From assembly GCA_041670225.1 (NCBI GenBank), contig JBAXZU010000001.1, positions 1 through 63,425 on the forward strand: a stretch of 63,425 bases of DNA, read 5' to 3'. Below the pieces are notes generated by a model. It was not told where the DNA came from. It did not search any database and saw only the letters and a list, made by a program, of their open reading frames with translations. Below, piece after piece: positions 21,824-62,830 of this stretch (the stretch's first letter is position 1; every line of letters begins with the position of its first letter). Origin of the DNA: Bacilli bacterium (GTDB lineage Bacteria > Bacillota_I > Bacilli_A > RFN20 > CAG-288). The translations under genes were made by a program, and so were the position numbers.

Positions 21824-21835
21824 TTTAATAAAAAA

Positions 21836-21916
<81 letters not shown>

Positions 21917-21989
21917 TATATTTTACATTTTCTTTTTGATTAAGGCAATATTAGGATGGATTTTTCCTTATTTTTTAAAGAATATTGGA

Positions 21990-46508: not shown

Positions 46509-49500
46509 ATGAAAAAATCACAGAAAAGAAAGATTATTGGATGTAGTTCATTAGGCGTCATCGGAGTTGCATTAATTGCCTTCAATGTCGGTTTAGGAAC
46601 TAACTTCAGTAATGTTGCTCAGTCTTTAGGTACTACTACTGTAACTGGTAATTACACCAGTGCCGACTGCTTTAACGATGGTGTTAAGGCTAATACTGAA
46701 ATTGAAGAAGAAGGTGCAGCTCTATTAGTCAATAAAGATAATCTTCTTCCTTTAACCAATCAGAAAGTCACTATCTTAGGTGCCTGTTCCCACAACTATG
46801 TTCAGGGTGGAACTGGTTCTGCCGGCGGTAAGGATGATCAGAATACTGTCATGCTTGATACCGTTATGGAAAATGCCAATATTGACTACAACAAAACTGC
46901 CTGGGAATGGCTTGACAATGCTTTAGGTTTAGGTCAGGATTCCCATAATGCTACTGTCAACAAGGATTATTTAGCCGAAGCCGATAAGGAAGTTGTCTCC
47001 AAATATGACTGGACTGACTATAAAACCATCCATGAATTCTCTCAGGATACTTACAATCAGTTTGTTACCGATACTGTCATCGGTTCCTACAAGGATGTCG
47101 CTATTGTCACCTTTGGAAGAAGTGGTGCTGAAGGTGCCTCTCCTTCTCTTGAATATGATGGAAACAAAGATACTACTACTGGACGTGACTATCTCGAACT
47201 CTCAGATGAAGAAAAAGATCTTCTGAAGTTCTGCAAGTCCAAGTTCAGCCACACTATTGTTCTGATTAACTCTGCTTTACCAATGGAATGCGGATTTGTC
47301 AACAATGATGATTACAATGTTGATGGCGTTCTTTGGATTGGTTTACCTGGCGAAGCCGGTATCAATGCTGTCGGTGAGATTCTTAACGGAAATGTCAATC
47401 CTTCCGGACATCTGGTTGATACCTGGACTTATGACATGACCACTAATCCAACCTTCTATTCCGCAAATGATCAGACTTATTCCAATGTTTCCGGCAATGG
47501 TATCGGATCCAAGAATAAGTATTATGAATACAATGAAGGTATTTATGTTGGATATCGTTATTATAAAACTGCTGATGCCGCTGGATATTTTGATTCCACC
47601 GACTTTAAGAACACTAAGTTCAAGGGTCATATCGGTGAAGGCAAGTATTATTCTGAATTAAGTGAAACCAACACCTATGAGTCAATGAAGGCTGAAGGCC
47701 CTAAGGCTACCTATGCTGGCTATGATGAATTAGTTCAGTTCCCATTCGGATATGGTCTGAGCTACACCTCCTTTAAGCAGGAAATCACTTCCAAGGATAT
47801 CAAGCTTGAAAAGCATGGCGAAAATACGATCAGTGTCAAAGTTACCAATACCGGCAAGGCTGCTGGAAAGAGCGTTGTCCAGATTTATATGGAATCCCCC
47901 TACAATCAGGATACTACTTTAGGCATTACCGGTGTTGGTCTTGAAAAAGCCAAGATGGAATTAGTTGGCTTTGCTAAGACTGATGAATTGGCTCAAGGCG
48001 AAAGCCAATCTGTTGAAGTCAGTTTCTCAACTGATGAATTAGCTTCCTATGATGAATTCGGAAAAGGAAGATATGTCCTTGAAAAGGGTGATTATACTTT
48101 CCATGTTGCTCAGAATGCTCACAGCTGGAATGCTGATGATGCCGATATTTATGGCGGAGACTATGCCACTACCACAACTAATGTTGCTGATACCAAGATC
48201 TATGATGACAAGAGAGTCATCACCATGAATGGTGTCACGGTTGAGGAAGGTACTGTTGCTAAGAATATCATGGCTGATATCACTGCTGGTGATGGTGCTA
48301 TGTTAGTTAACGGTGGTTCTTCCGGAAGTTATAAGCTTGGCTATCTTTCCCGTAAGGATTTTGCCTCCGGACTTAAGGAAATCATGTCCTATCAGTCTGA
48401 TGATGATACTGGCAAATACTCCGGGAACGGTTATGTCTGGTCGGCTGACGGCAAGGGAACAACTCCTTTAGCCAATGGCGGTGTTACCGAGAATGGTTCT
48501 GTCCGCAGAAAGGCTGCCCAGGCTGTTGTCGATGCTATTGTCACTACTCCTGCCCAGTTGACTGTTGATGGTGTCAACAATGGTATGGATTATAACTATG
48601 GCTCTTTAGTTGCTGACGGAATCACTTTACCTGATGGTCAGACTACTAAGAAGCTTTATGGCTATGGCAATGATGCCGCTGTCAATTCTGCTCTGACCAG
48701 AGATGGAAAATCAGCTGATGATGCTTCCTATCTGAAGAGTGATGCCGGAAATGAAATCAAGTTTGATGCTACTTATTATGTAGCTGAGAATAATGGTGAA
48801 TTAGTCAAGGCTGAAGATGGCTATGTTGCTATTTTTGACACTCAGGCTGATGCCAATGGAAGAGGAACTGCCAGAAAGCTTATGGCTGCTGATATGGCTG
48901 GTGTTCCTGATGATGATTTAGACAGATGGGATAAGTTAGCCAATGAATTATCATTCAATGAAGCTGACGATCTCATGGGTATCAACTCCTGGCAGGAAAT
49001 GGGGCTGCCGAATCAGTTGGCAAACCTCATCAGTTAGCTATTGATGGTCCTGGTGAAGCCGGTAATGCTCAGCATCCTGACCGTACTTGGTGGAACTGCG
49101 CTGTTGTTATCGCTGCTACCTGGAATGTCGAAATGCCTTATCTCTATGGTGAAAACTATGGTAAGCATGATCTTCTCAATGGTGTCAACTATTGCTACTG
49201 CCATTCAATGAACACTCATCGTACTCCTTTCGGCGGAAGAAACTTCGAATATTATTCAGAAGACGGATTTATTGCCGGTATCATCGGCGGTAACGCTGTT
49301 GCCGGTCTCCAGTCGGTCGGTATGCATGTCTTCTCAAAGCATATGGCTTTGAACGATTCTGATACTAACCGTAATGGTGTCACTACTTTCGCTGATGAAG
49401 CTTCTATCCGTGAAATCTATTCCAAGCCTTATGAAATTGTCACTAAGTACTTCCAGGCTGATGGTATCATGGGTTCACTTAACTCTCTTGGCGTCAGCTG

Positions 49501-49939
49501 GTCTCACTCCGGTTTCTACATTGATCTTGTCCGTACTGAATGGAAGTGGCATGGAATGCTGATCACTGATGGTGATGGTTCTTCCAGTGACTGCTACAAC
49601 CAGTATTCCTTCTGGACCTTCGGTACTGAAGGCGGCTTACTTGGCAGTGGTTCTTTACGTACTACCTGTGCTTACCAGTCCATCACTGCTGACACTGCTT
49701 CAAACTTCGTTAAGTACACTCTCCATAAGATTGCCCGTAATGCCTTATATCAGTATTCTCACAATCAGGATAAGTTAGGTGTTCAGAATGTTGTCACTCC
49801 TAACACTGTTGCTCCTGTTGCTATTCTTGTCTCGGTTGATGTTGTCTTAGTTGCCGCAGCTGGTGCTATTGCTGCTTGGACCTTCATCCCTAGAAAGAAG
49901 AAGGTTATTGTTGATGATTCCGAAGGTGATACTAAGTAA
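46509..49939 (+). pseudogene. GH3 glycoside hydrolase (beta-glucosidase family) with permuted domain order, interrupted by a 1-nt frameshift
   Basis: N-terminal TM, GH3 alpha/beta-sandwich domain (FPFGYGLSYTSF), Fn3-like domain, then the catalytic barrel in another frame (AIDGPGEAG..., RTPFGGRNFEYYSEDG, nucleophile region GMLITDGDG), then a C-terminal TM. The frame change maps to 48997-49004 (GAAATGGGG). Confidence 0.8.
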
Positions 49940-49997: not shown

Positions 49998-50867
49998 ATG
50001 AAAAAACATACATTATTTTCTGCCTTGTTAGCTTGTTTCGTTCTTGCAGGCTGCGGTGGATCAAACAAATTAGCTACTCCCACTGAATTCGAGTATACAG
50101 TTGCTACGGGCGCTTTCAAATTCAAAGGTGTTGAGAATGCTGAAACCTACACTATCAACGTTTACGAAGTTTTACCGGATGCTCTTGTTGCTTCCCTTGC
50201 CACAGGTGATACTACCAAGAAAGAAGTCATTACCTATAATGTTGACGGAAAAGACGTCAATGTCTGGCAGTGCTCAATCGGTTCCAGAGCTTCTATGAAG
50301 GCTGGTACTGATGGCTATATCTCAAATAAGATTGCCTACTACAGCTATTCTTCTTCGGCTATGTCCGGCGGCAGCCCAATCTCCTGCGCTGATACTCCTC
50401 TTACTGATTATGTCGCTGTTGCTATGGCTTCTAAGACTGACACTCATGCTGCTTCTGATCCCGCTCTTATCTCTTTCCGTCACACCGGAACTTTAGCTAC
50501 TCCTTCTTCAATCACTTACACCATTTCCGATGAATGAAAACTTACTGTTTCACTTAACAGTTACATGACTAGCTGCTTAACCACTTATGGTATTCCATCT
50601 AAGATTGAAGTCGAGGGACTGATGGATGGAGTCTCATTTAATAAGGCTACTATTAATGATTACAATTATTCTGTCTCAGTCAATGGTCCGAATACTGCCT
50701 ATAACTTTGATAAGGCTTCTCCTGTCTTTGACGGAACTTATTCCGCTGATGACAAGGATAAGATCACTATCAATGTCAAGGCTTACGGAAACGGTACAGA
50801 TATTCTCGATTCTGAAATCGGAACTGCCACCTATTCCAGCGGTTCTTCTTCCGGCGGACCGATGTAA
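49998..50867 (+). pseudogene. putative lipoprotein with an in-frame TGA at 50535-50537
   Basis: Lipobox LAGCGG. ORFs 49998-50537 and 50565-50867 share one frame, separated only by one TGA. The repeated module start LATP(T/S)xxxYT(V/I) spans the stop. Confidence 0.6.
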
Positions 50868-50883: not shown

Positions 50884-52638
50884 ATGTCTGAAAAACAAAA
50901 AAAGGTTATTTACGTGGAAGAGGACGAAGATGACGAAGAAGTTAAGCCTAGAAAACCTAAAGGAACTCCCTCTGGGTTTTCTAGTTTCTTAAATAAGTAT
51001 TTTCATCATCTGGACCGTGGTACTTCACTTCATGGTGAAATCAACAGTGGTATATTCGTCTTCCTTCTTGCTATCTGTATGATCATTGTCAATGTCCAAA
51101 TCATGGGTAATGCGATGAACGGCTCCTACACTATTTCTACTTCTCCTAATGATGCAACCAATATAGCTATGGCTCTTAACTATGCCACTCTCTATGTCGG
51201 AAGCATAATCATTGCCTTTGTCGGTTCTCTTCTTATGGGACTTGTTGCCAAACTGCCATTTGTTCAGATTGCAAATCTTGGTTTAGCATCATCAATAATT
51301 TCTTTGGTGGGTTCAACCAGTGGTTTGACCTACTACAATCTTTTATTCATCAATTTATTGAGATCTCTCCTCTATGTCATTGTCTCTTCCGTTCCATTAA
51401 TCCGTGACTTCTATATTAGAAGCATCCCTAAGGGTGTCAGAAAAGCCTTACCGGCGGCAATGGGAATTCTCTTATTTGTTACCTGCCTTAGCTTAAGCGG
51501 TATTATCTCCTTGAATACCATTAGCGGTGGGTTAGCCGGTGGGGTTACTGTCTTCGGTCTTGCAGACATTTCCAGCATGTCTCTCTTGATGACTGAAGCT
51601 TTTACTGCCATCATTATCGGAATTATTGTCTATGCCGTATTGAAAGCTATGAAAGTTAAGAAATCTCTGTTCTATGGATTTTTGACTGCCACAGTTCTCT
51701 ACTTTGTCATCAATATTTTGGCTAAGGGCCTCAATATTGAAGCTAATACTTCCAATACTGATTCTGTCTTTAATTTCGGACGTATCTGGGTTATTGCCGG
51801 AAGCCAGGCCAGTCCTGTTACTCCTTTTGGTGATAGTTACCTCAGTTATGTCGGAAGTGCTATTGGAAATCTCTTCAGTTCCTTACCTAAGGTCTTTACT
51901 GAAGGAACAGACTTCTCAGCCTGTACTGGAAATGCCTTCTTACTCATTGTCGGTGGAATGCTTAATTGTTTCTTCTTAGCTATGAGTGACTTTGATGCTA
52001 CTATTCTTGGAACCAAGAATATTCTTAACAAAGATGTCAAGGATGAAAAGTATGCTTTGAGTCTGGAAGAGGGAAAAGACGGAAACAGAGCCAGAGTTGT
52101 CAATGCAGGAATGAATGTTGTTGCTCCTTTCTTTGGTCAGGGTCAGGTTACTCTTTCTAAGAGTTCATTAGCCGGTATCATTGATTCAGGCAAATCAGGC
52201 ATTGTTCCTGTTGTCAGTTCCATTGGCTTCCTTATCTGTCTGTTCATCTTAGCTATTCCTGCCTTATTATCAACTACTTTCTATCCAGTCAACTCGATGA
52301 GTCAGTGGAATTACTTCGCTTATGGTAATGGCGGATTCATCTATCTGTTCCAGGGTTTAAGTTTTGCTATTGCTGATGTGGTTATTGCCCTTTGCGGTAT
52401 TTCCATGCTTAGAAACTTAGCTGACTTAGATTGGAAAGACTACCTGACTGCTATCCCAGCTATTGCTACCATTCTTGCTTCCTTGGTTTTCTATAGTTTG
52501 GCTATCGGTGTTCTCTTAGGTGTTGTTGTTTACACCGTTCTGAAGTTCCTTAATGTTCGTGCTGATAATTCTGTGAGCCTCTTTGCTGGCTTTAAGAATA
52601 ACTTCATCGCTAACATCAAGACCTTCACAATTCCGTAA
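50884..52638 (+). CDS. NCS2-family (AzgA-like purine/nucleobase) permease, divergent, with acidic N-terminal extension
   Basis: 584 aa, 12 or more TM segments. FLNKYFHHLDRGTSLHGEINSGIFVFLL resembles the AzgA/PbuG N-terminal motif. Confidence 0.55.
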   Translation: MSEKQKKVIYVEEDEDDEEVKPRKPKGTPSGFSSFLNKYFHHLDRGTSLHGEINSGIFVFLLAICMIIVNVQIMGNAMNGSYTISTSPNDATNIAMALNYATLYVGSIIIAFVGSLLMGLVAKLPFVQIANLGLASSIISLVGSTSGLTYYNLLFINLLRSLLYVIVSSVPLIRDFYIRSIPKGVRKALPAAMGILLFVTCLSLSGIISLNTISGGLAGGVTVFGLADISSMSLLMTEAFTAIIIGIIVYAVLKAMKVKKSLFYGFLTATVLYFVINILAKGLNIEANTSNTDSVFNFGRIWVIAGSQASPVTPFGDSYLSYVGSAIGNLFSSLPKVFTEGTDFSACTGNAFLLIVGGMLNCFFLAMSDFDATILGTKNILNKDVKDEKYALSLEEGKDGNRARVVNAGMNVVAPFFGQGQVTLSKSSLAGIIDSGKSGIVPVVSSIGFLICLFILAIPALLSTTFYPVNSMSQWNYFAYGNGGFIYLFQGLSFAIADVVIALCGISMLRNLADLDWKDYLTAIPAIATILASLVFYSLAIGVLLGVVVYTVLKFLNVRADNSVSLFAGFKNNFIANIKTFTIP

Positions 52639-52697
52639 ATTGTCATCTTTGGAGTCAGTATCCTTTCACTGGTCTTCATAGGATTGATGTAGTTATG

Positions 52698-52745
52698 ATA
52701 TCCGGTTTCAGAATCCATATCTGAAACCGGATATTTCTTCTTTGG
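52698..52745 (+). terminator. rho-independent terminator after the permease gene
   Basis: Perfect 14-bp stem ATATCCGGTTTCAG / CTGAAACCGGATAT with a 9-nt loop, followed by TTTCTTCTTT. Confidence 0.8.
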
Positions 52746-52770: not shown

Positions 52771-54465
52771 ATGTCGTTTATTAATCTTCAGAAAAAAATC
52801 AAAAATATTCAGGCTGAGAAACCTAATATGTCTTTAGCTGTTTTAGGTGATGTATCAACTCAGTTTTTGAAGATTGCCTTGCAGGCTATCGGAATGGATA
52901 ATGATATCATTCTGGATGTCTATGAAAGTCAGTATGATGTTGTTATTCAGGAAATATTGGATGATGACAGCGGATTATATCAATTCAATCCAGATAATCT
53001 CCTTCTTTATTTTTCAAGCGAAAAACTTTTAGATGATTTCTATCACTGTCCTGTTAAGGAAAGAACTGGTTTTGCTGATAATTGGATGAACAGTCTTTCT
53101 TCTCTTTTGAATAAGATTTCCGTAAAAATGAAAAAAACAAATATTCTAATCTATGATTTTATTGAAAAAGATGATGGAATATTTGCTGGTTATGCTCTGA
53201 AGACTGAGTCTAGTTTTCTGTATCAGGTTCGGAAACTCAATCTTCTTTTAAGTCAGGAAATCATGAAAAGAAAAAATGTTTTTATTGTTTCCCTGAATTC
53301 CTTAGCACTTGAAAAAGGAACTGAAAATATTTTTTCTTATCCGCTTTTTGATGCTTCCAAAGTCAGTATCAAGCCTGATTATTTAGAAGAATTAGCTAAA
53401 CGGACTATCTCTGTTCTTTCCGCCTTACGAGGAAAAATCCGTAAAGGAATTATTGTTGATTTAGATAACACTCTTTGGGGTGGAGTAATTGGAGATGATG
53501 GGATTGACGGTATTCAGATTGGTGAACATGGAATCGGACGGGCTTTTCTTCGCCTGCAGAAATATCTTAAGGAAATGGAGAGAAGGGGAATTGTTCTCTG
53601 TGTCTGTTCCAAGAATGATATTGGTAATGCAAAAGAACCATTTATCTCACATCCGGAGATGATCCTTCATCTGGATGACTTTGCTCTTTTTGTTGCTAAT
53701 TGGGAGGATAAGGCCACCAATATCCGTTATATTCAGTCAGTTCTCAATGTCTCCATGGATTCTCTGGTCTTCCTTGATGACAACCCTTTTGAAAGAAATC
53801 TAGTGAGAACCATGATTCCGGAAATCACAGTTCCTGAGTTACCGAAAGATCCTAGTCTTTATGTTTCCTATTTAAGAAATCTTAATCTTTTTGAGGTTAC
53901 CAGTATTTCGGAAGAAGACAGCAAAAGAGTGAGCCAATATCAGGCCGAAGGAAAAAGAGAAGAAGCTAAGAAATCTTTTACTTCAATTGAAGATTATCTT
54001 AAGCAATTGAAGATGGTATCTAAATATTCCTCTTTTAAAGAGAAAAACATCTCACGTATTTCGCAGCTGTCTCTTCGAAGCAATCAATTCAATCTCCGTA
54101 CTATCAGATACACTGAATCCGATATCAAGAGAATTATTAATGATAGTAATTATCTGACAATAGAATTTTCACTGAATGACCGTTTTGGTGATTCCGGTCT
54201 GATTTCCGCACTCATTCTTAAAAAAGATGAAAACATTCTTTTTATTGATACTTGGATTATGAGCTGTCGGGTTCTGAAAAGAACAATGGAAAGTTTCATC
54301 ATTAATCAATTAGTTGAGTTATGCCGGGAAAAGGGAATAACTCAGTTGGTAGGAGAATATCTTTCGACCAAAAAGAACTCAATGGTTGCTGATTTATATC
54401 AAAGAATGGGATTTATCAAAAGTGAGGACGGATTATTTGTCCTCAATATCAGGGATGCTAAATAA
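52771..54465 (+). CDS. FkbH-like HAD-IIIC family protein (putative acyl/glyceryl loader for the adjacent carrier protein)
   Basis: 564 aa. HAD-IIIC motifs IIVDLDNTLWGGVIGDDG, LCVCSKND, VFLDDNPFER. FkbH-type C-terminal region (WIMSCRVLKR). Confidence 0.8.
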   Translation: MSFINLQKKIKNIQAEKPNMSLAVLGDVSTQFLKIALQAIGMDNDIILDVYESQYDVVIQEILDDDSGLYQFNPDNLLLYFSSEKLLDDFYHCPVKERTGFADNWMNSLSSLLNKISVKMKKTNILIYDFIEKDDGIFAGYALKTESSFLYQVRKLNLLLSQEIMKRKNVFIVSLNSLALEKGTENIFSYPLFDASKVSIKPDYLEELAKRTISVLSALRGKIRKGIIVDLDNTLWGGVIGDDGIDGIQIGEHGIGRAFLRLQKYLKEMERRGIVLCVCSKNDIGNAKEPFISHPEMILHLDDFALFVANWEDKATNIRYIQSVLNVSMDSLVFLDDNPFERNLVRTMIPEITVPELPKDPSLYVSYLRNLNLFEVTSISEEDSKRVSQYQAEGKREEAKKSFTSIEDYLKQLKMVSKYSSFKEKNISRISQLSLRSNQFNLRTIRYTESDIKRIINDSNYLTIEFSLNDRFGDSGLISALILKKDENILFIDTWIMSCRVLKRTMESFIINQLVELCREKGITQLVGEYLSTKKNSMVADLYQRMGFIKSEDGLFVLNIRDAK

Positions 54466-54494
54466 TTGACGACATATATTCAGGGGGAAAAAGC

Positions 54495-54734
54495 ATGAAA
54501 GAAGAAATGATTTTTGAAAGACTGGAAAAGGTCTTCCGGGAAGTGTTCGATGATGAGACTATAAAACTTACAAAAGAAACGCCCAGTTCTGATGTTGAGG
54601 GATGGGATTCCCTTTCACATCTGCTGTTGATTCAGTCGGTTGAAGATGAATTTTCATTTTCGTTTGAAATGAAGGATATTGTTTCTATGGAAAATGTTGG
54701 TGCCATGATTGATATCATTAAGGAACATATATGA
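54495..54734 (+). CDS. acyl carrier protein (phosphopantetheine attachment Ser39)
   Basis: 79 aa. GWDSLSHLLLIQSVEDEF has the ACP DSL motif (Ser codon at 54609-54611). ATGA overlap with the next gene. Confidence 0.85.
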   Translation: MKEEMIFERLEKVFREVFDDETIKLTKETPSSDVEGWDSLSHLLLIQSVEDEFSFSFEMKDIVSMENVGAMIDIIKEHI

Positions 54735-55528
54735 TTACTTTAGGAATTGATATCGGTTCAACTACATCCAAAGTAGTTATTCTGAAAGACGGCCAAGAGA
54801 TTTTAGCTACTTCTCTTTTACTGATTGGAACCGGAACTAAAGGTCCGGTTCTGGCTATGAATGAAGCCTTAATGAAATCCGGACTGAAAAGAGAAGATAT
54901 TGACTATATTCTGGCTACTGGATATGGTCGAAAGAATTTCACTTTAGCTGATTCTCAGGTTAGCGAATTAAGCTGTCATGCTAAGGGAGTCAATCGGATG
55001 TATCCTCAGGCTAGGACAATCATCGATATCGGAGGACAGGATGCCAAAGTCATTCAGCTTTCCGAAAACGGAAAGATGCTTTCATTTCAGATGAATGACA
55101 AATGTGCAGCCGGAACCGGAAGATTCCTTTCGGTTATGGCTAAAGTTTTAGACATTTCTTTAGAAGATATGGATTCCTATGCCCACAAGTCAAAGAAAAC
55201 TGTAGCCTTGAGTTCTACTTGCACGGTTTTTGCTGAAAGTGAGGTTATTTCCCTGCTTTCAGATGGTATTCCGACTTCAGACATTGTTGCGGCTATTGAC
55301 CGTTCAATTGCTGTCAGAGTCGGAGCCTTAGCTCTGAGATTAGGAATTCAGGATGATGTGATTATGACTGGCGGAGTAGCCAGAAATTCTGTGATTGCTG
55401 AAAATATTTCGACAGTTATCAGCAAAAAAGTGATTGTTTCTGAGATGGCACAGCTGAATGGGGCTTTTGGTGCTGCAATATTAGCCTATGAGAGGGTGAT
55501 AAAAGATGAAAGCTCATCAGCTCTATAA
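54731..55528 (+). CDS. BcrAD/BadFG-type ATPase, 2-hydroxyacyl-CoA dehydratase activase (HgdC-like)
   Basis: 265 aa. LGIDIGSTTSKVVIL ASKHA phosphate-1 motif, DKCAAGTGRFL and SSTCTVFAES (the two Cys regions that ligate the bridging [4Fe-4S] in HgdC). Confidence 0.88.
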   Translation: MITLGIDIGSTTSKVVILKDGQEILATSLLLIGTGTKGPVLAMNEALMKSGLKREDIDYILATGYGRKNFTLADSQVSELSCHAKGVNRMYPQARTIIDIGGQDAKVIQLSENGKMLSFQMNDKCAAGTGRFLSVMAKVLDISLEDMDSYAHKSKKTVALSSTCTVFAESEVISLLSDGIPTSDIVAAIDRSIAVRVGALALRLGIQDDVIMTGGVARNSVIAENISTVISKKVIVSEMAQLNGAFGAAILAYERVIKDESSSAL

Positions 55529-56693
55529 GCAACTCACTGAGGATTATTATTCTCAGGCAGAAGAGGCAAAGAAAGAAGGAAAACTGGTGGGTTGGGCCAG
55601 CAGTAATTTTCCTTGTGAGATACCTGAGTCCTTGTCTTTATGTATTCAGTATCCCGAAAACCATGCCGCCATGCTTAGTTCTAAGAAAGCTGCCGATAAG
55701 TATTTTGCTTTAGCCGAACAAAAGGGTTACAGCAACGATCTTTGTTCATATGCGAGAATCAATCTTGGATATTGTGAGACTTTTGATTCTGAACAAAGAA
55801 ATTTAGTCAGGCCTGATTTTCTTCTCTGTTCCTCTAACACCTGTCATCAGCTGATTAAATGGTATGAGATACTTTCTCTGAAATTTGAGATTCCTCTATT
55901 TATCCTGGATATCCCTTATCAGATGAAAGGAACTCCGGATCAGAATAAACTTGATTATGTAAAAAATCAGCTGGATGTTATTATCAAGGAATTATCTTTT
56001 ATCTCACACCAGACATTTAATCAGTCTAAGCTTGATGAAGTAATGGAAATATGTAAAGAAAATGCTAGGCTTTGGCATTCTATTCTGGATCTAGCTAAGA
56101 ATAAGCCTTCTCCTATCAATGGTTTTGATTTATTTGTCTATATGTCAGCTATTGTGACTATGAGATCAAAAAAGGAAACTACAGTTTTTTTAAAAAAATT
56201 AAAAGAAGAAATTGAAAATAAGGTAGAAAACAAGAAAACAACTTATCCGGGAAAAGAAGAGTACCGAGTTTCTTTTGAGGGTATTTGCTGTTGGCCCTGT
56301 CTTTACGAATTTCAAATTCCTCTGATTAATAATCATATCAATGTGGTTGGCGGAAAATATCTTGATTTATTTGCCTTGACCTATTCGGATTATCCTTCTT
56401 TGATTCAGGCCTACTGCAGTATTCCTAATTCCTTAGGAATTGAAAATGCTATCAAAGAAAGCCGGGAAATAGTTTCAGAGTATCAGACTGATGGAGTGAT
56501 TTTCAATCTGACACGAAGCTGCCGAATTTGGTGTGGTTACTATTTTGCTTTGGAAAGAGAAATCAGAAACGGCTGTAATCAGGAAACCTTACTTATTGAT
56601 TCTGATCAGGCCGATAGACGTAATTTTGCTTTTGCCCAGTATGAAACCCGAGTTGAGGCTTTCAGTGAAATGCTGTCGGAAAAGGAGCAATGA
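55506..56693 (+). CDS. 2-hydroxyacyl-CoA dehydratase family D-component subunit (HgdA/HadB-like)
   Basis: 395 aa. Cys-containing motifs (DLCSYARINLG, RSCRIW) and overall pattern typical of HGD-D proteins. 23-nt overlap with the activase gene. Confidence 0.78.
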   Translation: MKAHQLYKQLTEDYYSQAEEAKKEGKLVGWASSNFPCEIPESLSLCIQYPENHAAMLSSKKAADKYFALAEQKGYSNDLCSYARINLGYCETFDSEQRNLVRPDFLLCSSNTCHQLIKWYEILSLKFEIPLFILDIPYQMKGTPDQNKLDYVKNQLDVIIKELSFISHQTFNQSKLDEVMEICKENARLWHSILDLAKNKPSPINGFDLFVYMSAIVTMRSKKETTVFLKKLKEEIENKVENKKTTYPGKEEYRVSFEGICCWPCLYEFQIPLINNHINVVGGKYLDLFALTYSDYPSLIQAYCSIPNSLGIENAIKESREIVSEYQTDGVIFNLTRSCRIWCGYYFALEREIRNGCNQETLLIDSDQADRRNFAFAQYETRVEAFSEMLSEKEQ

Positions 56694-56694
56694 A

Positions 56695-57804
56695 ATGAGT
56701 ATAAATGAAATAATTGCTCAGTTTTCTGAGATTTCACTCCATCCATCGATAAAGTTAAGTGAATACAAGAAAAATGGACTTAAGGTCATAGGTGTCTTAC
56801 CCTGTCATGTTCCCGAAGAAATCATTCATGCCTGTGGTGCTGTTCCTTTCGGAATCTTGGGTATGGAAGCAAAAGCCGTGAAGGCTAAGGAATATTTTCC
56901 GTCTTTTTTCTGCTCGATACTGACAACCTCGATGGAAATGCTGCTTAGTGGAATGTTTGATTCTTTAGATGGAATAGTTTTAACTGATTTATGTGATTCT
57001 TTGAAGTCTTTCAGTCAGAATGCGATGCTATCTAAGAAAAATATTAATTTCATTCCTTTGTCTTTGCCTATTAATACTGTTTCTATAGCTAGCAAGGCTT
57101 ATTTTGAAAGCCAAATGAAAGTTTTCTCTAAAAAGCTCAGTTCAATTACCGGAATCAATCTGACTTCGGAAAGACTGAAGGAATCAATTGAGAAATATAA
57201 CCTGAATAAGAAGCTTTTGAATGATTTTCTGGCTTTAACGAGAAATCATTCCAAGACAATTACCTCCTTGGTCAGGGCTTCTGTCATTAAGGCTTGCTAT
57301 TTTCTGACGGTTGAGGAAGCTAATCAGTTACTTTGTCAGCTTAATGCGGAACTAGAAAAACTTCCTAACGAAAAATCCGGTCTGAAAATTGCTGTTACCG
57401 GAATTCTTTTTGATAATCCTGAGACTCTTCAGATGCTGGATAATAACGGAATCACTATTGTGGCATCTCAGGTTCTCTATGAAACAAATAAGACCGATAA
57501 TCCATGTTCTCAGACTGATTTGAGCGGAATTACGGAAAGGTATTTCACTCTCAATTCTTCTTTGCTAGGTCAAAGACAGTTCTTACGAAAGGCTAGTCTA
57601 GATTCTTTGATTAACAGGTATCATCCAGAAGGTGTGATTTTTGCAATGACCAAGTTCTGTGATCCCGAAGAATACGACTTTCCTTTAATTAAAAAAAGCA
57701 TTCAGAATCAGGATATTCCTTTTGTGGTTTTGGAGATGAATAAAGGAAGTGAGAGCTTAGGTAAGAATCAGACAATCATTGATGCTTTAGGAGAAATGAT
57801 ATGA
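56695..57804 (+). CDS. 2-hydroxyacyl-CoA dehydratase family D-component subunit (HgdB/HadC-like)
   Basis: 369 aa from the ATG at 56695 (AAGGAG RBS). TDLCDSLK and TKFCDPEEYDFP motifs. The longer track ORF (from 56533) overlaps the previous gene and is rejected. Confidence 0.78.
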   Translation: MSINEIIAQFSEISLHPSIKLSEYKKNGLKVIGVLPCHVPEEIIHACGAVPFGILGMEAKAVKAKEYFPSFFCSILTTSMEMLLSGMFDSLDGIVLTDLCDSLKSFSQNAMLSKKNINFIPLSLPINTVSIASKAYFESQMKVFSKKLSSITGINLTSERLKESIEKYNLNKKLLNDFLALTRNHSKTITSLVRASVIKACYFLTVEEANQLLCQLNAELEKLPNEKSGLKIAVTGILFDNPETLQMLDNNGITIVASQVLYETNKTDNPCSQTDLSGITERYFTLNSSLLGQRQFLRKASLDSLINRYHPEGVIFAMTKFCDPEEYDFPLIKKSIQNQDIPFVVLEMNKGSESLGKNQTIIDALGEMI

Positions 57805-58076
57805 TAGTCGAATTCAGTAACTTAGTGATTGTTCTTTCACCATTGCTTTGGCTTCTCTATATTTTAAGCCTGGTTTTCATGGTTCTTGAAGAGCTTTATG
57901 ATGTTAAAGGAATCTTCCGTTTTATTTCTTATGGATTATGTGTGGTTTTTATCTGTGTCAGTTTTATGAGTGGCTGCAAATATCAGGAACTGATACTGTT
58001 CCTTTTGGTTTGGATAGTAATTCAGGCAATCTCAATTTCTTTACATAATAAAAAAGATGGAGCTAAAGAATTATGA
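57801..58076 (+). CDS. small integral membrane protein (three TM segments), translationally coupled on both sides
   Basis: 91 aa. ATG overlaps the upstream TGA (ATGATATGATAG) and its TGA overlaps the MBOAT ATG (ATGA). Occupies the position of a DltX-like accessory protein. Confidence 0.5.
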   Translation: MIVEFSNLVIVLSPLLWLLYILSLVFMVLEELYDVKGIFRFISYGLCVVFICVSFMSGCKYQELILFLLVWIVIQAISISLHNKKDGAKEL

Positions 58077-59599
58077 ACTTCATCTCACTTATTTATTTAG
58101 CTTCATTTATCGTATTTTCAATTCTTTTCTTCTTACTTCCTAAGAAGATTCAACCCTATCTTCTGCTTATTGCCTCATTAGGATTCTATGCCTATAGCGG
58201 GTGGCAATCTTTGCTTTGCTTGATTGGATTAGGGCTTATCGGCTATCTTTCCGGTCTTTTTCTGGGAAGGAATATTTCCCATTCAAAAGGAAATGAGCTT
58301 TCGGAGAAAGAAATAAAAAAGAATCGTGTCTTCCGTAAGGTTATTATTGGTGTTTCTATTATTCTTGATTTCCTGATCCTTATTTATGGAAAGTTTGGAG
58401 TATCCTTAATTCAGGAAATCAATAGTTCTGCCAAGGCTAGTGATATTCTTATTCCGTTAGGACTTTCTTTTATTGTTTTTGAAAACATCAGCTACACCGT
58501 TGATGTCTACCGTCAGACTATTGAATATGAAAGAAATCCATTTAACTATTATTTATTTATTTGTTATTTTCCTAAGATTCTGATGGGACCGATTGAAAGA
58601 TATGGAAAGTTTATGCCTGAGCTTTTAAAAGAACATCAGGCTCAGAGTGAAGATATTCAGCAAGGATCAGTAAGAATTCTTCTGGGATTCTTTAAAAAAA
58701 TAGTAGTAGCAGAAAGTATCTATCCTTTTATCAATAATGTTCTGAATGAGAAAAGCAATGTAGGCAGCTTAGTTGTTCTGGCACTGCTTTTGTATTCTTT
58801 CTATCTTTATCTGGATTTTTCCGGATATATGGATATTGCGGTCGGCTCTTCTCAGGTTTTAGGAATTAAGCTAAGTGAGAATTTCCGTTCTCCTTACTTA
58901 TCCACATCGATTGGTGAATTCTGGAGAAGATGGCATATCACTTTGGGAGCTTTCTTCAAAGATTATGTTTATTATCCTTTGATGATGTCACCTTTATGAA
59001 AAAGACTGCTTTCTAAGAAAAAGAAATGGATCAATAAACTATTGACGGTAATTGCTCTTCTGATTACCTGGACTTTGATGGGCTTATGGCATGAAAGCAC
59101 GCTTAATTTCCTTGTTTATGGTCTTTATCATGGTTTCTTCTTAATTTTGGAAGCCTTATTTGAAACTCCTATCCGGAAACTGATGAAGAAGCATGGTTTT
59201 GATTATCAGAATCGGGGATATGTGATTCTTAAAACTATTATCACCTTCTCATTGGTGACTTTCGGATATGTTTTCTTTGTGACAAATAGCATTCAGGCCT
59301 CCTTTTCTTTGATTTCCTCAATATTTTCTACTAATAATATTTTGCTTCTTTTTGGTGATGCTCTATGTGAAAACGGACTTCCCGTGTTCACAATTCTGGT
59401 TTTCCTTATTTCTTCTCTTTTCCTCTTAATTGTTCAGGGAATTCTGAAACCCAAATCGAATCTGACTTTAAGATGTCAGTCAAATTCCGGAGCTAAACTT
59501 TCTTTGGTTATTGTCACTTTAGTAATTGTTTCTTTAAGCTGGCTGATTCTCTACGAGAGCGGAGACAGTGTCAGTCAGTTTGTCTATTTTCAGTTTTAG
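58073..59599 (+). pseudogene. MBOAT-family membrane O-acyltransferase (DltB/AlgI-like) with an in-frame TGA at 58997-58999
   Basis: EFWRRWHITLGAFFKDYVYYPL before the stop and MGLWHESTLNFLVYGLYHG (catalytic His region) after it, in the same frame. Reading through gives one 508-aa MBOAT. Confidence 0.8.
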
Positions 59600-59607
59600 G
59601 AGGAAGT

Positions 59608-61080
59608 ATGAAAAAAACAATAAAAAGATTATTCATCATTCTTCTGGGATTCCTTCTGCCTTTTTCAATCATAGCCTCACTTTTTGTGACTATTCCCTGT
59701 CAGTATTCAGAGACATATGTCGGAGAATTAAGCTATCTTTTTGATCGGCTGAATTCTACCAAAGAAAGAAAAGTCATTGTCATCGGAGGCAGCAGCTGTG
59801 CCTTTGGACTGAGAAGTGACTTGGTCGAACAGGAATTAGGTTTGCCATGTATTAATTTTGGATTATATGGAACTATCGGAACGAAGACTATGATGTCCTT
59901 GGCTAAAAGCAACATTCAGGAAGGTGATATTGTTATCCTTTCTCCGGAAGTCAATGAACAGACAATGTCCTTATATTTCAATCCTGATGCCATGATCCGG
60001 GCTTTGAACGGAAATATGGAAATGTTCTCTCTTTTGGATGAAAAAGATCAGCTTTCCCTTTTGAGTGCTGTCCCTTCCTATTTATCTAACAATTATGATA
60101 TTTATTCCGGAAAAGCTTCTAACAGTGTAGCTGGAATCTATCAGCGTTCTTCCTTCAATGAATATGGAGATATTTCAGTTTTCCGTCCTTTTAACATCAT
60201 GGAAGACTCCTATGATCCGGTCTCTCTGATTAAATGTGATTTTACTTCAGTACCTGATGATTTCATTGATTACTGCAATGAATTTGCTTCTTTTGTCCGT
60301 TCTAAGAAAGCAAGCATCTATTATTCTTATGGTCCGATGAATCAAATGGCAATAGCCTCCAGTGTTCCTTCAATTTTGGAGTTTGAAGACTATCTTTACG
60401 ATAAACTGGATTTTGAAATCATTTCTAATATTAATGACTATATTATTGACTCCGATTATTTTTATGATACCAATTTTCATTTGAATACGGCGGGAGCTAT
60501 CTTACGTACCAATAGTCTTATCTATGATATCAAACGTGTTTTAGGTGATAATTCTCCGAATAATATCCAACTCATGGATAAACCTCTTACTCCTTCGGAT
60601 ACGGATGACGGAGAGGATGGAGAGGAGGAAGAAGATACAGCCGATAGTGAATCTATGGAAGGACTTGATAATTCCTACTATGATGATTTCAGCTACGATA
60701 AAGTCGGTTCCTATTATTCCGTCACTAATCTTAAAGGCAGTGGTCAGGCTAAGTCTGAGTTGGTGGTTCCTTGTCTTTATGAAGGCAAAAGAATCAACCG
60801 CATAACCATGGATGCTCTCTCCTATGCTCCGAATCTGAAGAAAATCACTATTCAGAGAAATATCACTCAGATTCAGAACAGCGCTTTTTCCGGCTGCCCT
60901 GAATTAAGGGAAATCTATGTCAAGATTGCAAATCCTGTGGATATTACTGTCGGTATGGCCGGCGGTCTATTGACTGGTACCAATGCGACCTGTCTGATTT
61001 ATGTTCCTAAGGCTTCTTTATCTCTCTATCAGAATGACTACACCTGGGAAGCTTATCGCAGTGTGTTAAGGGGGTATTGA
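59608..61080 (+). CDS. membrane-anchored DltD-like (SGNH-type) protein with C-terminal BspA-type leucine-rich repeats
   Basis: 490 aa. N-terminal TM, VIVIGGSSCAFGL (DltD GSS-like Ser motif), YDTNFHLNTAG (D..H motif), acidic linker, then LRR_5-like repeats (ITIQRNITQIQNSAFSGCPELREIYV). Confidence 0.6.
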   Translation: MKKTIKRLFIILLGFLLPFSIIASLFVTIPCQYSETYVGELSYLFDRLNSTKERKVIVIGGSSCAFGLRSDLVEQELGLPCINFGLYGTIGTKTMMSLAKSNIQEGDIVILSPEVNEQTMSLYFNPDAMIRALNGNMEMFSLLDEKDQLSLLSAVPSYLSNNYDIYSGKASNSVAGIYQRSSFNEYGDISVFRPFNIMEDSYDPVSLIKCDFTSVPDDFIDYCNEFASFVRSKKASIYYSYGPMNQMAIASSVPSILEFEDYLYDKLDFEIISNINDYIIDSDYFYDTNFHLNTAGAILRTNSLIYDIKRVLGDNSPNNIQLMDKPLTPSDTDDGEDGEEEEDTADSESMEGLDNSYYDDFSYDKVGSYYSVTNLKGSGQAKSELVVPCLYEGKRINRITMDALSYAPNLKKITIQRNITQIQNSAFSGCPELREIYVKIANPVDITVGMAGGLLTGTNATCLIYVPKASLSLYQNDYTWEAYRSVLRGY

Positions 61081-61081
61081 T

Positions 61082-62830
61082 ATGAAACTTAGAAAACTAT
61101 TCTTTTCGCTGCTTCCCCTCTTATTGATTTCATCCTGCTATGGAGAACCTATAAGTACAATTTCTTCCCGATACCGAGTTATGGTTTTGGAGAATTCCGG
61201 AATCGAGATTATCGGTGATACTCAGAAAATCTGTGACTATGGTGACTCACTATCCTTTTCGGTTTCTCTGGTAGAAGGATATGAAATCACTGATATAAGT
61301 TATGGATATTATGATTATGAAAACTCTTTGCTTATTGTTGAGGATGTTTCTTCACAGCTTTCAATTACAATCTCAACTTCCTTGATCAATTCTTCTTATA
61401 CTATTGATTATTACCTCAATGGTGCGACTAGTTTCAATAACTCAACTGAGAAGATTATCCACCGCTATTATGATCCTTCTATCCGTTTAAGACCGAATAC
61501 CCTGAGATATGATGAAGTCAGTCCTTTAGAAGGAAAAACTCTCATTGGTTGGAATACTAAAGCTGATTTTACCGGTGAGGATATTGGCTTAGGAAGCCGG
61601 GTTACTATCAATAGTGAAAGAAGTCTTAGTCTGTATGCTAAATTTGAAACGTGGTCAGATTCCTCTGCTTTTTCCTATGAAGAAAAGAATAATGGAATCA
61701 GCATTACCGGATATCATGGTCAGGAAGAAAAAATAGTTATTCCGGATACAATCAATGAAAAGAAAGTTTTAGAGATTGCTAAGGGTGCTTTTGCTGATCT
61801 TGACTTCATTGATACTGTCATTATCAATCCTTCTATGGAAGCTATCAGAGGTCAGGGGTTTAGAAATGTTTCCTTAGAGACTCTTTGCTTTTTCGATAAT
61901 CTAAAAACTGTTTCCGATGAATCATTTACTGATTGCCAGAATCTGAAATATGTTCATGTCAATGCCCAGGTAGCTCCTAAATACACCAAGGAATGGACTA
62001 ATAGTTTTGCAGATAAGTTTGATAGGGTGTTTTTAGCTCGGGAAAAGAAACAGATGGTTTTCTTCGGCGGTTCAAGCATGCCTTACGGGCTTTCTTCTTT
62101 GATGGTGGATAAGGAATTTGCTTTACAGTATGTCGTTACTGATTTATGGCTGTCCTATCTGATTAATCCGGGAATGCAGTTTGAAATTCTTGATTCCTGG
62201 CTTTCGGATGGCGATATCTTGGTTCATGCTCCGGAAGATATGACTGAGAAGGTCTCATGGAATGAATTCAGTGATTTGACCTGGAGAGTCTTAGAATTTA
62301 ATTATGATCTGGTTTCAAAGGTTGATATTTCCAGACATACTTCTATTTTTACTTCATTCAACGGCTATAACGGCAATAGGCGTCAGCTGAAAGCTACTTC
62401 CTATAATGAGAAAAGCCGTACCTATAATGAATACGGAGATTTATCGACTTTCCGTCCTAATACGGATAATACTGATAAAGGATATGACATTGTCTATAGT
62501 GCGACTCAGCTGAAGGATTCCGTTCTTTCTTCATTGGATTCGATTTATGATGGGTTTGTCAGTAAAGGAATCACTGTCTATTTTTCATATGGACCGGCTA
62601 ATTTGGACGGAAATAAAATTCCAACCGCTGATGTCAGAGCTCTTTATGATCTGAAAGTCAGGAAGTTCATTACTTCTTGTCCGATTATTTCCCAGCTGGA
62701 AGATTATCTTTTCCGGGGAAAGTATTTTTCTAATACCAACTACCATATGACTTCTCAGGGAGCGGAATTAAGAACTAATCAGTTAATCAAAGATCTTAAG
62801 GCTCAAATGAAAACTGATGGGATTATTTGA
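61082..62830 (+). CDS. lipoprotein with Listeria-Bacteroides repeat, BspA-type LRR and C-terminal DltD-like domain
   Basis: 582 aa. Lipobox LLISSC, LIGWNTKADFTGEDIG repeat, LRR_5-like VIPDTINEKKVLEIAKGAFADL, then MVFFGGSSMPYGL and SNTNYHMTSQGAELRTNQLIKDLK, paralogous to the preceding gene. Confidence 0.6.
   Translation: MKLRKLFFSLLPLLLISSCYGEPISTISSRYRVMVLENSGIEIIGDTQKICDYGDSLSFSVSLVEGYEITDISYGYYDYENSLLIVEDVSSQLSITISTSLINSSYTIDYYLNGATSFNNSTEKIIHRYYDPSIRLRPNTLRYDEVSPLEGKTLIGWNTKADFTGEDIGLGSRVTINSERSLSLYAKFETWSDSSAFSYEEKNNGISITGYHGQEEKIVIPDTINEKKVLEIAKGAFADLDFIDTVIINPSMEAIRGQGFRNVSLETLCFFDNLKTVSDESFTDCQNLKYVHVNAQVAPKYTKEWTNSFADKFDRVFLAREKKQMVFFGGSSMPYGLSSLMVDKEFALQYVVTDLWLSYLINPGMQFEILDSWLSDGDILVHAPEDMTEKVSWNEFSDLTWRVLEFNYDLVSKVDISRHTSIFTSFNGYNGNRRQLKATSYNEKSRTYNEYGDLSTFRPNTDNTDKGYDIVYSATQLKDSVLSSLDSIYDGFVSKGITVYFSYGPANLDGNKIPTADVRALYDLKVRKFITSCPIISQLEDYLFRGKYFSNTNYHMTSQGAELRTNQLIKDLKAQMKTDGII

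Follow-up and report, generated by a model that had tools for sequence, protein, structure and literature searches.

A predicted carrier-protein-fed MBOAT-SGNH acylation operon with an FkbH loader and a 2-hydroxyacyl-CoA dehydratase module in an uncultured Bacilli bacterium

What does a bacterium do with an operon that joins an FkbH-like loader and an acyl carrier protein (ACP) to a 2-hydroxyacyl-coenzyme A (CoA) dehydratase of the HGD family and an MBOAT exporter? The question is raised by one end of a 63,425-bp contig, listed by NCBI as "MAG: Bacilli bacterium" and derived from an uncultured, gut-type organism; the whole contig was analysed and is called the window below. A sequence-only reading had described nine co-directional genes at 52771-62830 as a Dlt-like surface acylation operon in which the loader and the dehydratase take the place of DltA. 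All nine open reading frames (ORFs) are indeed present on the + strand, tightly coupled, and encode, in this order, FkbH, ACP, an activase, HGD alpha, HGD beta, a small membrane protein, an MBOAT and two surface proteins (Table 1). We propose that the operon probably encodes an MBOAT-SGNH system which is fed by a carrier protein and has some part of the cell envelope as its target of acylation.

The donor half begins with the FkbH protein, which scores above the curated cutoffs of both FkbH_N (PF21211; 9e-46, 156.6 bits, cutoff 27) and TIGR01686 (7e-93, 311.2 bits, cutoff 146.65), in keeping with the FkbH-like HAD-IIIC protein that had been named ahead of the carrier. Its closest solved relative is the uncharacterised Bacteroides fragilis protein BF1531 (PDB 3slr, 1.4e-95). 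Both the HAD motif I DxDxT and the conserved Cys of the C-terminal transferase domain are present, and the motifs DLDNT (D230/D232), SKN, DDN and W(I/L)MSCRVLKR (C499) are invariant in seven orthologues. As in OzmB, the C499-type Cys is presumably the carrier of the glyceryl intermediate. Characterised FkbH enzymes all use 1,3-bisphosphoglycerate, and in polyketide pathways dedicated enzymes tailor the glyceryl-ACP on its carrier (PMC7489565). The second protein of the operon, taken alone, reaches 20.3 bits against Pfam PP-binding, just below the cutoff of 20.8. A profile of 15 of its sequences matches ACPs of the PDB at 6.6e-24 to 1e-6, with ACP 2lml in front (6.6e-24) and ordinary ACPs ranking next, and DltC is not among the best 60 PDB matches. 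The carrier had been called a DltC analogue; what stands of this is a true ACP, by profile and by its GWDSL motif, of the ordinary type. A DltA-type adenylating (AMP-binding) enzyme is encoded neither in the window operon, as had been noted, nor in the clusters of its relatives, and none of the FkbH-containing clusters examined encodes a CoA-transferase or CoA-ligase, the former a feature of HGD systems.

Between the carrier and the exporter lies a complete 2-hydroxyacyl-CoA dehydratase set, as had been claimed. The activase matches BcrAD_BadFG (4e-63) and TIGR00241 (4e-78, 262.5 bits, cutoff 125.4), and its C125 and C164 are invariant and placed as the two cluster-bridging cysteines. HGD alpha and HGD beta align over their full lengths with HadB (3o3m_A, 4.5e-89) and HadC (3o3m_B, 1e-67), respectively, the true start of the latter subunit being the ATG at 56695. 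Six cysteines are invariant in HGD alpha (C80, C108, C113, C262, C339 and C343) and exactly three in HGD beta (C73, C100 and C322), which matches the three-Cys cluster ligation of the family (PMC8473912). In NCBIfam, HadB and HadC rank at the top, with scores far under the equivalog cutoffs (376 vs 750 for HadB, 273 vs 700 for HadC); reductase-type proteins (BzdO/MbdO and double-cubane reductases) are matched at 1e-17 to 1e-24. Profile hidden Markov models (HMMs) thus support the assignments of FkbH, ACP, activase, both HGD-D components and MBOAT. HGD enzymes strip (R)-2-hydroxyacyl thioesters of their 2-hydroxyl by way of a ketyl radical primed with ATP, and they recycle the electron (PMC8473912); family members that act on non-CoA substrates exist, for instance the plasmalogen synthase PlsA/PlsR (PMC12838417).

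The MBOAT matches the Pfam family (PF03062; 1.6e-18, 67.5 bits), and its sole NCBIfam match is the DltB model, at 1.8e-42 and 146 bits vs a cutoff of 375. Two histidines are invariant, H288 in WRRWH and the catalytic-type H340 in GLWH, and seven orthologous MBOATs all end in SQF(V/I)YF(Q/E/N/R)F with an invariant Tyr. This ending is the FxYxxF acyl-shuttle motif, which in Dlt resides on the microprotein DltX and in PatA-type MBOATs is fused behind two extra helices; in the latter, the Tyr becomes auto-acylated and next serves as the donor for the SGNH protein (PMC12148441). Since the motif is fused to the MBOAT at its C-terminus and the 91-aa protein encoded just upstream lacks it, the MBOAT is classed, on its sequence, as PatA-type rather than as a DltB with a separate DltX. 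The likeness to DltB in the sequence-only reading therefore holds for the domain and for the similarity to the DltB model, the fused shuttle motif setting the protein apart, and the small membrane protein loses its proposed role as the analogue in the DltX position. The 91-aa protein has no family match in Pfam or NCBIfam, and a small membrane gene stands at the equivalent position before the MBOAT of an ACP-less locus (L013); we thus rejected it as a DltX.

The two surface proteins have no match to DltD, SGNH or DHHW sequence families (Pfam at E up to 10, NCBIfam), BspA-type leucine-rich repeats (LRRs) being the only hits, and profile searches of both against PDB sequences return LRR proteins alone. 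The fold adds to this. An AlphaFold (AF2) model of the 490-aa protein (pLDDT 91.3, pTM 0.87) was compared with the PDB by Foldseek: its N-terminal domain matches rhamnogalacturonan acetylesterase with probability 1.0, DltD (7dxm, 6o93) with probability 0.97, YxiM and GDSL lipases, and its C-terminal domain matches LRR proteins. The N-terminal 329 residues have 431 homologues, for which no Pfam or NCBIfam model exists, and in an alignment of 54 sequences G60, S62, D287 and H291 are invariant and G61 nearly so. Residues 295-577 of the 582-aa lipoprotein are homologous to this domain (hhalign probability 99.8, E 2.6e-29), with invariant S331-S332 and H555; the SGNH Asp is replaced by Asn in three of five copies. 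Of the two DltD-like proteins that had been proposed, the SGNH fold, with DltD among the best matches of the 490-aa protein and the domain shared by the 582-aa protein, is thus what stands: "DltD-like" is supported, by the model, at the level of the fold only.

Table 1. Coordinates of the operon, its 5' boundary and notable sites within it
Feature	Position	Strand	Length	Basis or remarks
Intrinsic terminator-like hairpin	52697..52745	+		16-bp stem (52697-52735), 7-nt loop, T-rich tail
FkbH-like HAD-IIIC loader	52771..54465	+	564 aa	FkbH_N, HAD phosphatase and C-terminal transferase domains
Stand-alone ACP	54495..54734	+	79 aa	Invariant GWDSL phosphopantetheine-serine motif (S39)
ATP-dependent activase, 2-hydroxyacyl-CoA dehydratase/benzoyl-CoA reductase type	54731..55528	+	265 aa	Family models, cysteines
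HGD-D dehydratase alpha (HadB-like)	55506..56693	+	395 aa	HGD-D 7e-64
HGD-D dehydratase beta (HadC-like)	56695..57804	+	369 aa	HGD-D 2e-62; length from ATG 56695
Small membrane protein	57801..58076	+	91 aa	Conserved KYQEL motif; no assigned role
MBOAT, PatA-type with extra C-terminal helices	58073..59599	+	508 codons in one frame	Family models, motifs
In-frame TGA within MBOAT	58997..58999	+		Replaces invariant Gly
FVYFQF, FxYxxF acyl-shuttle hexapeptide at MBOAT C-terminus	59579..59596	+		Motif definition PMC12148441
Membrane-anchored surface protein	59608..61080	+	490 aa	N-terminal transmembrane helix; SGNH-fold domain ~27-313; C-terminal BspA-type LRR
Lipoprotein, signal ending LISSC	61082..62830	+	582 aa	N-terminal Listeria-Bacteroides-repeat-like region, BspA LRR, C-terminal domain 295-577

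Is this gene set a functional unit? The closest homologues of HGD alpha form a small clade of 45-63% identity (P0002-P0010), all others being at most 41% identical, and six genomic contexts of this clade were examined (L003/L004, L005, L006/L007, L008/L009, L010 and L011). In five of them the full set of nine genes is present, its order unchanged and its MBOAT intact, and in L010 the order is the same up to the contig end, which falls inside the eighth gene. The proteins of these relatives are 34-75% identical to those of the window, protein by protein, and the insertion point of the HGD genes between ACP and MBOAT, with overlapping starts and stops, is kept in all six. The co-occurrence to be expected of a real system is thus found, its order strictly kept across diverged genomes. 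The nearest outgroup is the HGD alpha of Anaerospora (L012, 40% identical), which lies in a canonical fermentation operon of CoA-transferase, activase and HGD alpha/beta, together with a 2-hydroxyacid dehydrogenase, electron-transfer flavoprotein (ETF) and acyl-CoA dehydrogenases. A scan of genome contigs with HGD alpha returned one distant Lentisphaera locus (L002) alone. An alpha/beta hydrolase gene (Hydrolase_4/Abhydrolase_1) directly follows the cluster in most relatives (L003:17612-18487, L006:17477-18469, L008/L009:17501-18441, L011:16114-) and is absent from the window.

The loader, carrier and exporter extend far beyond this clade. A metagenome scan with the FkbH alignment gave 80 loci (L015-L094), and the ORF/HMM scan recovered the FkbH ORF in 77 of them. 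An ACP is adjacent in 59 of the 77 and an MBOAT, mostly right after the ACP, is present in 28; 23 of these 28 MBOATs end in FxYxxF, and HGD genes occur in none of the 77. Judged by gene content, the FkbH-ACP-MBOAT core is widespread and only the HGD module is clade-specific. FkbH homologues of about 50% identity are very numerous. Trios of this kind in environmental metagenomes (e.g. L016:9983-14632, L021, L024, L078) are often followed by an unannotated 320-370-aa protein. The module of L016 is part of a polysaccharide biosynthesis locus that also encodes GT8, UDP-glucose dehydrogenase and a capsule-synthesis protein, and variants with a MaoC-like dehydratase and a short-chain dehydrogenase/reductase (SDR) occur in L018 and L022. 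Putative tailoring genes of other kinds are a class I methyltransferase (L090:5678-6610) and a glyoxalase/dioxygenase-fold protein (L024:11716-12141). Shorter MBOATs of 405-412 aa that do not end in FxYxxF are found in L070, L084, L089 and L090.

The most informative sister cluster is that of two Firmicutes loci (L095:7787-14439 and L096:7783-14411), in which the order is MaoC dehydratase, FabG-like SDR, a 322-aa protein, FkbH, ACP, MBOAT and GDSL lipase. It shares with the window operon the FkbH (50-51% identical), the ACP (46-51%) and an MBOAT with the FxYxxF ending (34-35%); it differs in its tailoring enzymes, a hot-dog dehydratase and a ketoreductase, and in its SGNH partner, a canonical GDSL protein without LRRs. 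In a rough neighbour-joining tree the MBOATs of the HGD clusters form one clade, with FkbH-linked MBOATs such as those of L095 and L096 as nearest neighbours. The sister cluster, an abundant one of gut type, adjoins FemAB and alanine racemase genes, in L096 also a penicillin-binding protein gene; 262 blocks of the collection list its FkbH (P0287). From FkbH-dehydratase-ketoreductase starter modules, lactyl-ACP formed via pyruvoyl-ACP is expected. The cluster, which appears to be uncharacterised, may, by its gene content, O-lactylate a wall polymer. Because sister FkbH-ACP-MBOAT clusters carry MaoC and a ketoreductase instead, HGD can be regarded as a swappable tailoring module. As far as gene content tells, the whole looks like a modular system with an FkbH-ACP donor core, optional tailoring on the ACP and MBOAT-SGNH export, in which HGD would be the tailoring module of one small Bacilli clade.

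How does such a system relate to those already characterised? With Dlt (DltA, DltC, DltB, DltX, DltD) it would share the route from a carrier-bound acyl thioester via the MBOAT and the Tyr of FxYxxF to an external SGNH-fold protein. It lacks DltA, a DltC-type carrier, a separate DltX and any sequence match to DltD, and it differs from Dlt also in the LRR domains of its two SGNH-fold proteins and in its predicted acyl group, a tailored C3 hydroxy or oxo acid rather than an amino acid. The MBOAT itself, with extra C-terminal helices ending in FxYxxF, and the extracytoplasmic SGNH-fold partners resemble PatA/PatB and the related AlgI/AlgJ/AlgX and WssH/WssI, the two partners finding a parallel in AlgJ and AlgX; in contrast to the operon, which couples a dedicated FkbH, ACP and HGD donor module translationally to the MBOAT, these systems use acetyl-CoA and no carrier protein (PMC12148441). 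By analogy, the operon would thus be Dlt-like on the cytoplasmic side, with its carrier-bound donor, and PatAB/AlgIJX-like outside, with its fused shuttle and SGNH partners. The polyketide loaders of the FkbH/OzmB type (methoxymalonyl-ACP, tetronates) have in common with it the FkbH domain with its HAD and Cys motifs, the adjacent ACP and C3 tailoring on the ACP, but the operon has no polyketide synthase, no FabH-like enzyme and no FkbI/K/G oxidase-methyltransferase set, and its sink is an MBOAT exporter. Finally, the three dehydratase components align over their full lengths with HadBC/HadI of Clostridioides difficile and HgdAB/HgdC and conserve their cluster cysteines, whereas their scores are sub-equivalog, a CoA-transferase or fermentation context is lacking, the genes lie between ACP and MBOAT and a 2,3-dihydroxy acid bound to ACP is predicted as the substrate. 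In the literature searched, which did not cover subscription-only papers, we found no description of FkbH with a 2-hydroxyacyl-CoA dehydratase or of an FkbH-fed envelope MBOAT; FkbH and MBOAT co-occurred there only in papers on the cyanobacterial aeruginosin/suomilide gene clusters. Within that same scope, the statement that no characterised pathway has this gene content remains valid.

We thus propose the following mechanism. FkbH, to judge from its family membership and conserved residues, would load a glyceryl unit from 1,3-bisphosphoglycerate onto the dedicated ACP. The activase would then pass one electron, at the expense of ATP, to the oxygen-sensitive HGD alpha/beta dehydratase, and this would use ketyl-radical chemistry to take the 2-hydroxyl off the (R)-glyceryl thioester on the ACP. 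What should result is 3-hydroxyacryloyl-ACP, which is the enol form of 3-oxopropanoyl-ACP (malonate-semialdehyde ACP), and this pair is the most likely outcome; such a regiochemistry would be complementary to that of a hot-dog dehydratase, from which pyruvoyl-ACP would be expected. In analogy to PatA and to DltB/DltX, the MBOAT would receive the acyl group on the cytoplasmic side from the ACP and transfer it via His340 to the Tyr of its own FVYFQF at the outer face. One or both SGNH-fold/LRR proteins would accept it on a Ser (S62 in the 490-aa protein, S331/332 in the lipoprotein) and pass it on to a surface glycopolymer, glycolipid or protein, so that the gene set as a whole predicts the export of an unusual, tailored acyl group. 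An acyl-Tyr relay from MBOAT to SGNH Ser to polymer has been established experimentally for PatA/PatB and Dlt (PMC12148441). With an ACP thioester in place of a CoA thioester as its substrate, the HGD enzyme would be a novelty in its family. More tentatively, and with somewhat less than even confidence, we consider it possible that the operon represents an unrecognised class of envelope acylation. Such a class would build glycolytic C3 acyls on an ACP, modify them by interchangeable tailoring (HGD; MaoC plus ketoreductase; methyltransferase) and export them through a PatA-type MBOAT to SGNH proteins; HGD would be the first member of the 2-hydroxyacyl-CoA dehydratases with a biosynthetic role on an ACP thioester, and a reactive ester of the 3-oxopropanoyl or acryloyl type would decorate the surface of a strict anaerobe.

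Several points weigh against this proposal. To our knowledge, an ACP thioester is not a substrate of any HGD-family dehydratase, and a 3-oxopropanoyl ester would be chemically labile. The cluster contains no reductase, ferredoxin or flavodoxin gene. Every functional step is read by bioinformatics, and it is from the adjacency of the genes only that we infer an MBOAT accepting ACP-bound rather than CoA-bound acyl groups. The contexts sampled are few, six for the HGD clade and 80 FkbH loci. Clostridia contain pairs of MBOAT and SGNH-fold protein that have no ACP, FkbH or HGD (L013:6226-11446, L014:8512-11482), in which an MBOAT of the FxYxxF type is paired with a homologue of the 490-aa protein; in L013, an LRR/Flg_new protein and an 81-aa membrane protein come before the pair. 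The SGNH assignment is one of fold only, with Foldseek E-values of ~1e-3 and TM-scores that are low for this multi-domain query, and the Asp-His spacing of the 490-aa protein, DTNFH, is DxxxH where DxxH is usual. Last, the frame of the MBOAT gene is interrupted in the window genome. Counting it, three genes are broken within ~13 kb, the other two a short way upstream of the operon, so that this part of the contig may be in decay or its assembly prone to error.

Could the same genes do something else? One possibility is that the HGD genes are a catabolic unit of their own, encoding a CoA-ester dehydratase for amino-acid or hydroxy-acid fermentation, and were inserted by chance between the FkbH-ACP and MBOAT pairs. 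All characterised close homologues are indeed fermentation CoA-ester dehydratases, and HadB/HadC lead the NCBIfam ranking; however, the scores fall far under the equivalog cutoffs, no CoA-transferase, 2-hydroxyacid dehydrogenase, acyl-CoA dehydrogenase or ETF gene is nearby, unlike in L012, and the clade is met in this setting in all six contexts examined, with the insertion point and overlapping codons kept throughout. We hold this explanation to be very unlikely. It is unlikely, too, that the architecture is as proposed and the chemistry different, with the HGD acting by reduction or double elimination to give acryloyl- or 3-hydroxypropionyl-ACP, or with FkbH loading another phospho-acid. 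HadB and HadC are by far the best matches, the canonical mechanism recycles its electron (PMC8473912) and no donor is encoded in the cluster, and the characterised FkbH enzymes agree in their substrate (PMC7489565). Nevertheless, the HGD/benzoyl-CoA reductase superfamily does include true ATP-driven reductases, among them those matched by the query, the beta-hydroxyl of the enoxy radical left after loss of the 2-hydroxyl could leave once reduced, and a beta-aldehyde ester would be less stable than one of acryloyl or 3-hydroxypropionyl. The acceptor might also be a lipid, some protein of the cell surface or a small molecule that is secreted instead of a glycopolymer, and the LRR-SGNH proteins esterases or adhesins instead of transferases. 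Their SGNH domain belongs to no curated family, BspA-type LRRs and Listeria-Bacteroides repeats are typical of surface proteins that bind proteins or hosts, and most relatives have the hydrolase gene after the cluster. We consider this quite unlikely nonetheless: all characterised bacterial MBOAT-SGNH pairs with FxYxxF acylate envelope glycopolymers (PMC12148441), and related FkbH-ACP-MBOAT modules lie in a polysaccharide locus (L016) or beside cell-wall genes (L095, L096). Acylation of an envelope component from a carrier-bound donor is the reading that we retain.

A separate matter is whether the operon still works in this genome or is a recently inactivated, functionless relic, which we regard as somewhat unlikely. 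The in-frame TGA of the MBOAT stands where six intact orthologues (508-527 aa) invariably have a Gly, with GGN as its codon, and lies upstream of both the catalytic His340 and the shuttle motif. A second in-frame TGA (50535-50537) splits a ~290-aa lipoprotein gene (49998-50867, +) and aligns with a Gly of the L003 orthologue (…ISDE[G]VLTV…). Both are followed by AAA, and no other ORF pairs in the window are split by a single in-frame TGA. A GH3 glycosidase is likewise split into two ORFs on the + strand in different frames, 46509-49037 (842 aa) and 49133-49939 (268 aa); in L003 and L005, the orthologue beside the cluster is one continuous protein (1155-1157 aa), which suggests a frameshift. 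We considered that TGA might be read as Gly (as in a code 25-like table), as both in-frame TGAs align with Gly, and rejected this, since TGA ends the ACP, HGD-alpha and membrane-protein genes at orthologous ends; 10 of the 42 long ORFs of the window end in TGA, which otherwise is a genuine stop. Against a relic speak the eight other genes, which are intact, and the MBOAT segment after the stop, which shows 52% vs 60% identity to L003 where two intact orthologues show 55% vs 62%. By this comparison of sequences the segment is no more diverged than expected, so that the nonsense event would be recent or a consensus error. Only one other assembly has the stop, the ENA contig L001, which matches at 100% identity across 20,054 nt and is hence not independent. 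Unless the stop is a sequencing error, the last steps of the pathway are probably disabled in this strain; its close relatives have intact MBOAT copies.

The layout of the operon agrees with a single coupled unit in most of the details given by the sequence-only reading. A strong terminator had been placed before it, and a hairpin with 16 pairs and a T-rich tail is present there, which closes the gene of an upstream 584-aa membrane protein and sets the operon's 5' boundary. Both ATGA overlaps (54731 and 58073), the junction of HGD beta and the membrane protein at about 57798-57809 (ATGATATGATAG; likewise GAAATGATATGATAG), the 23-nt overlap of the activase and HGD-alpha genes at 55506-55528 and gaps of 1, 8 and 1 nt are all as described; the gap from FkbH to ACP, 29 nt, falls outside the claimed range of 1-8 nt. 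The 584-aa multi-pass membrane protein (50884-52638, +), directly upstream of the terminator, has no Pfam or NCBIfam match. Its gene adjoins the cluster in the two closest relatives (67-71% identical) and is absent from more distant ones. We rejected it as a member of the system on account of the intervening terminator, the linkage in the closest relatives only and the lack of a family match. Downstream, after an AT-rich spacer, a pyruvate:ferredoxin-oxidoreductase-like (PFOR-like) gene begins at ~63036, as seen by eye in the translation. The window is chromosomal, encoding GroEL, DnaX, amylases, ABC transporters and the RNA of the signal recognition particle (SRP); the latter is of the small bacterial type (RF00169, 61.4 bits) and lies at 21824-21920 (-). 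No tRNA gene was found anywhere in the 63-kb window.

In summary, our analysis points to an operon in which a glycolytic C3 unit may be tailored on a carrier protein and exported to the cell envelope. MBOAT-SGNH systems govern how well cells resist lysozyme and cationic peptides, as well as the properties of biofilms. In the prevailing view, Dlt alone among them uses a carrier protein, all other MBOAT/SGNH pathways being fed by acetyl-CoA without one (PMC12148441). From the loci described here, carrier-protein-fed systems of the FkbH-ACP-MBOAT type seem to form a large and unstudied group in gut Firmicutes and many environmental bacteria, one that could place glyceryl, lactyl or other C3 esters on surface polymers. 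If the proposal is true, the HGD variant would bring an enzyme family so far known only from fermentation into envelope biosynthesis, with a change of its substrate from a CoA to an ACP thioester.

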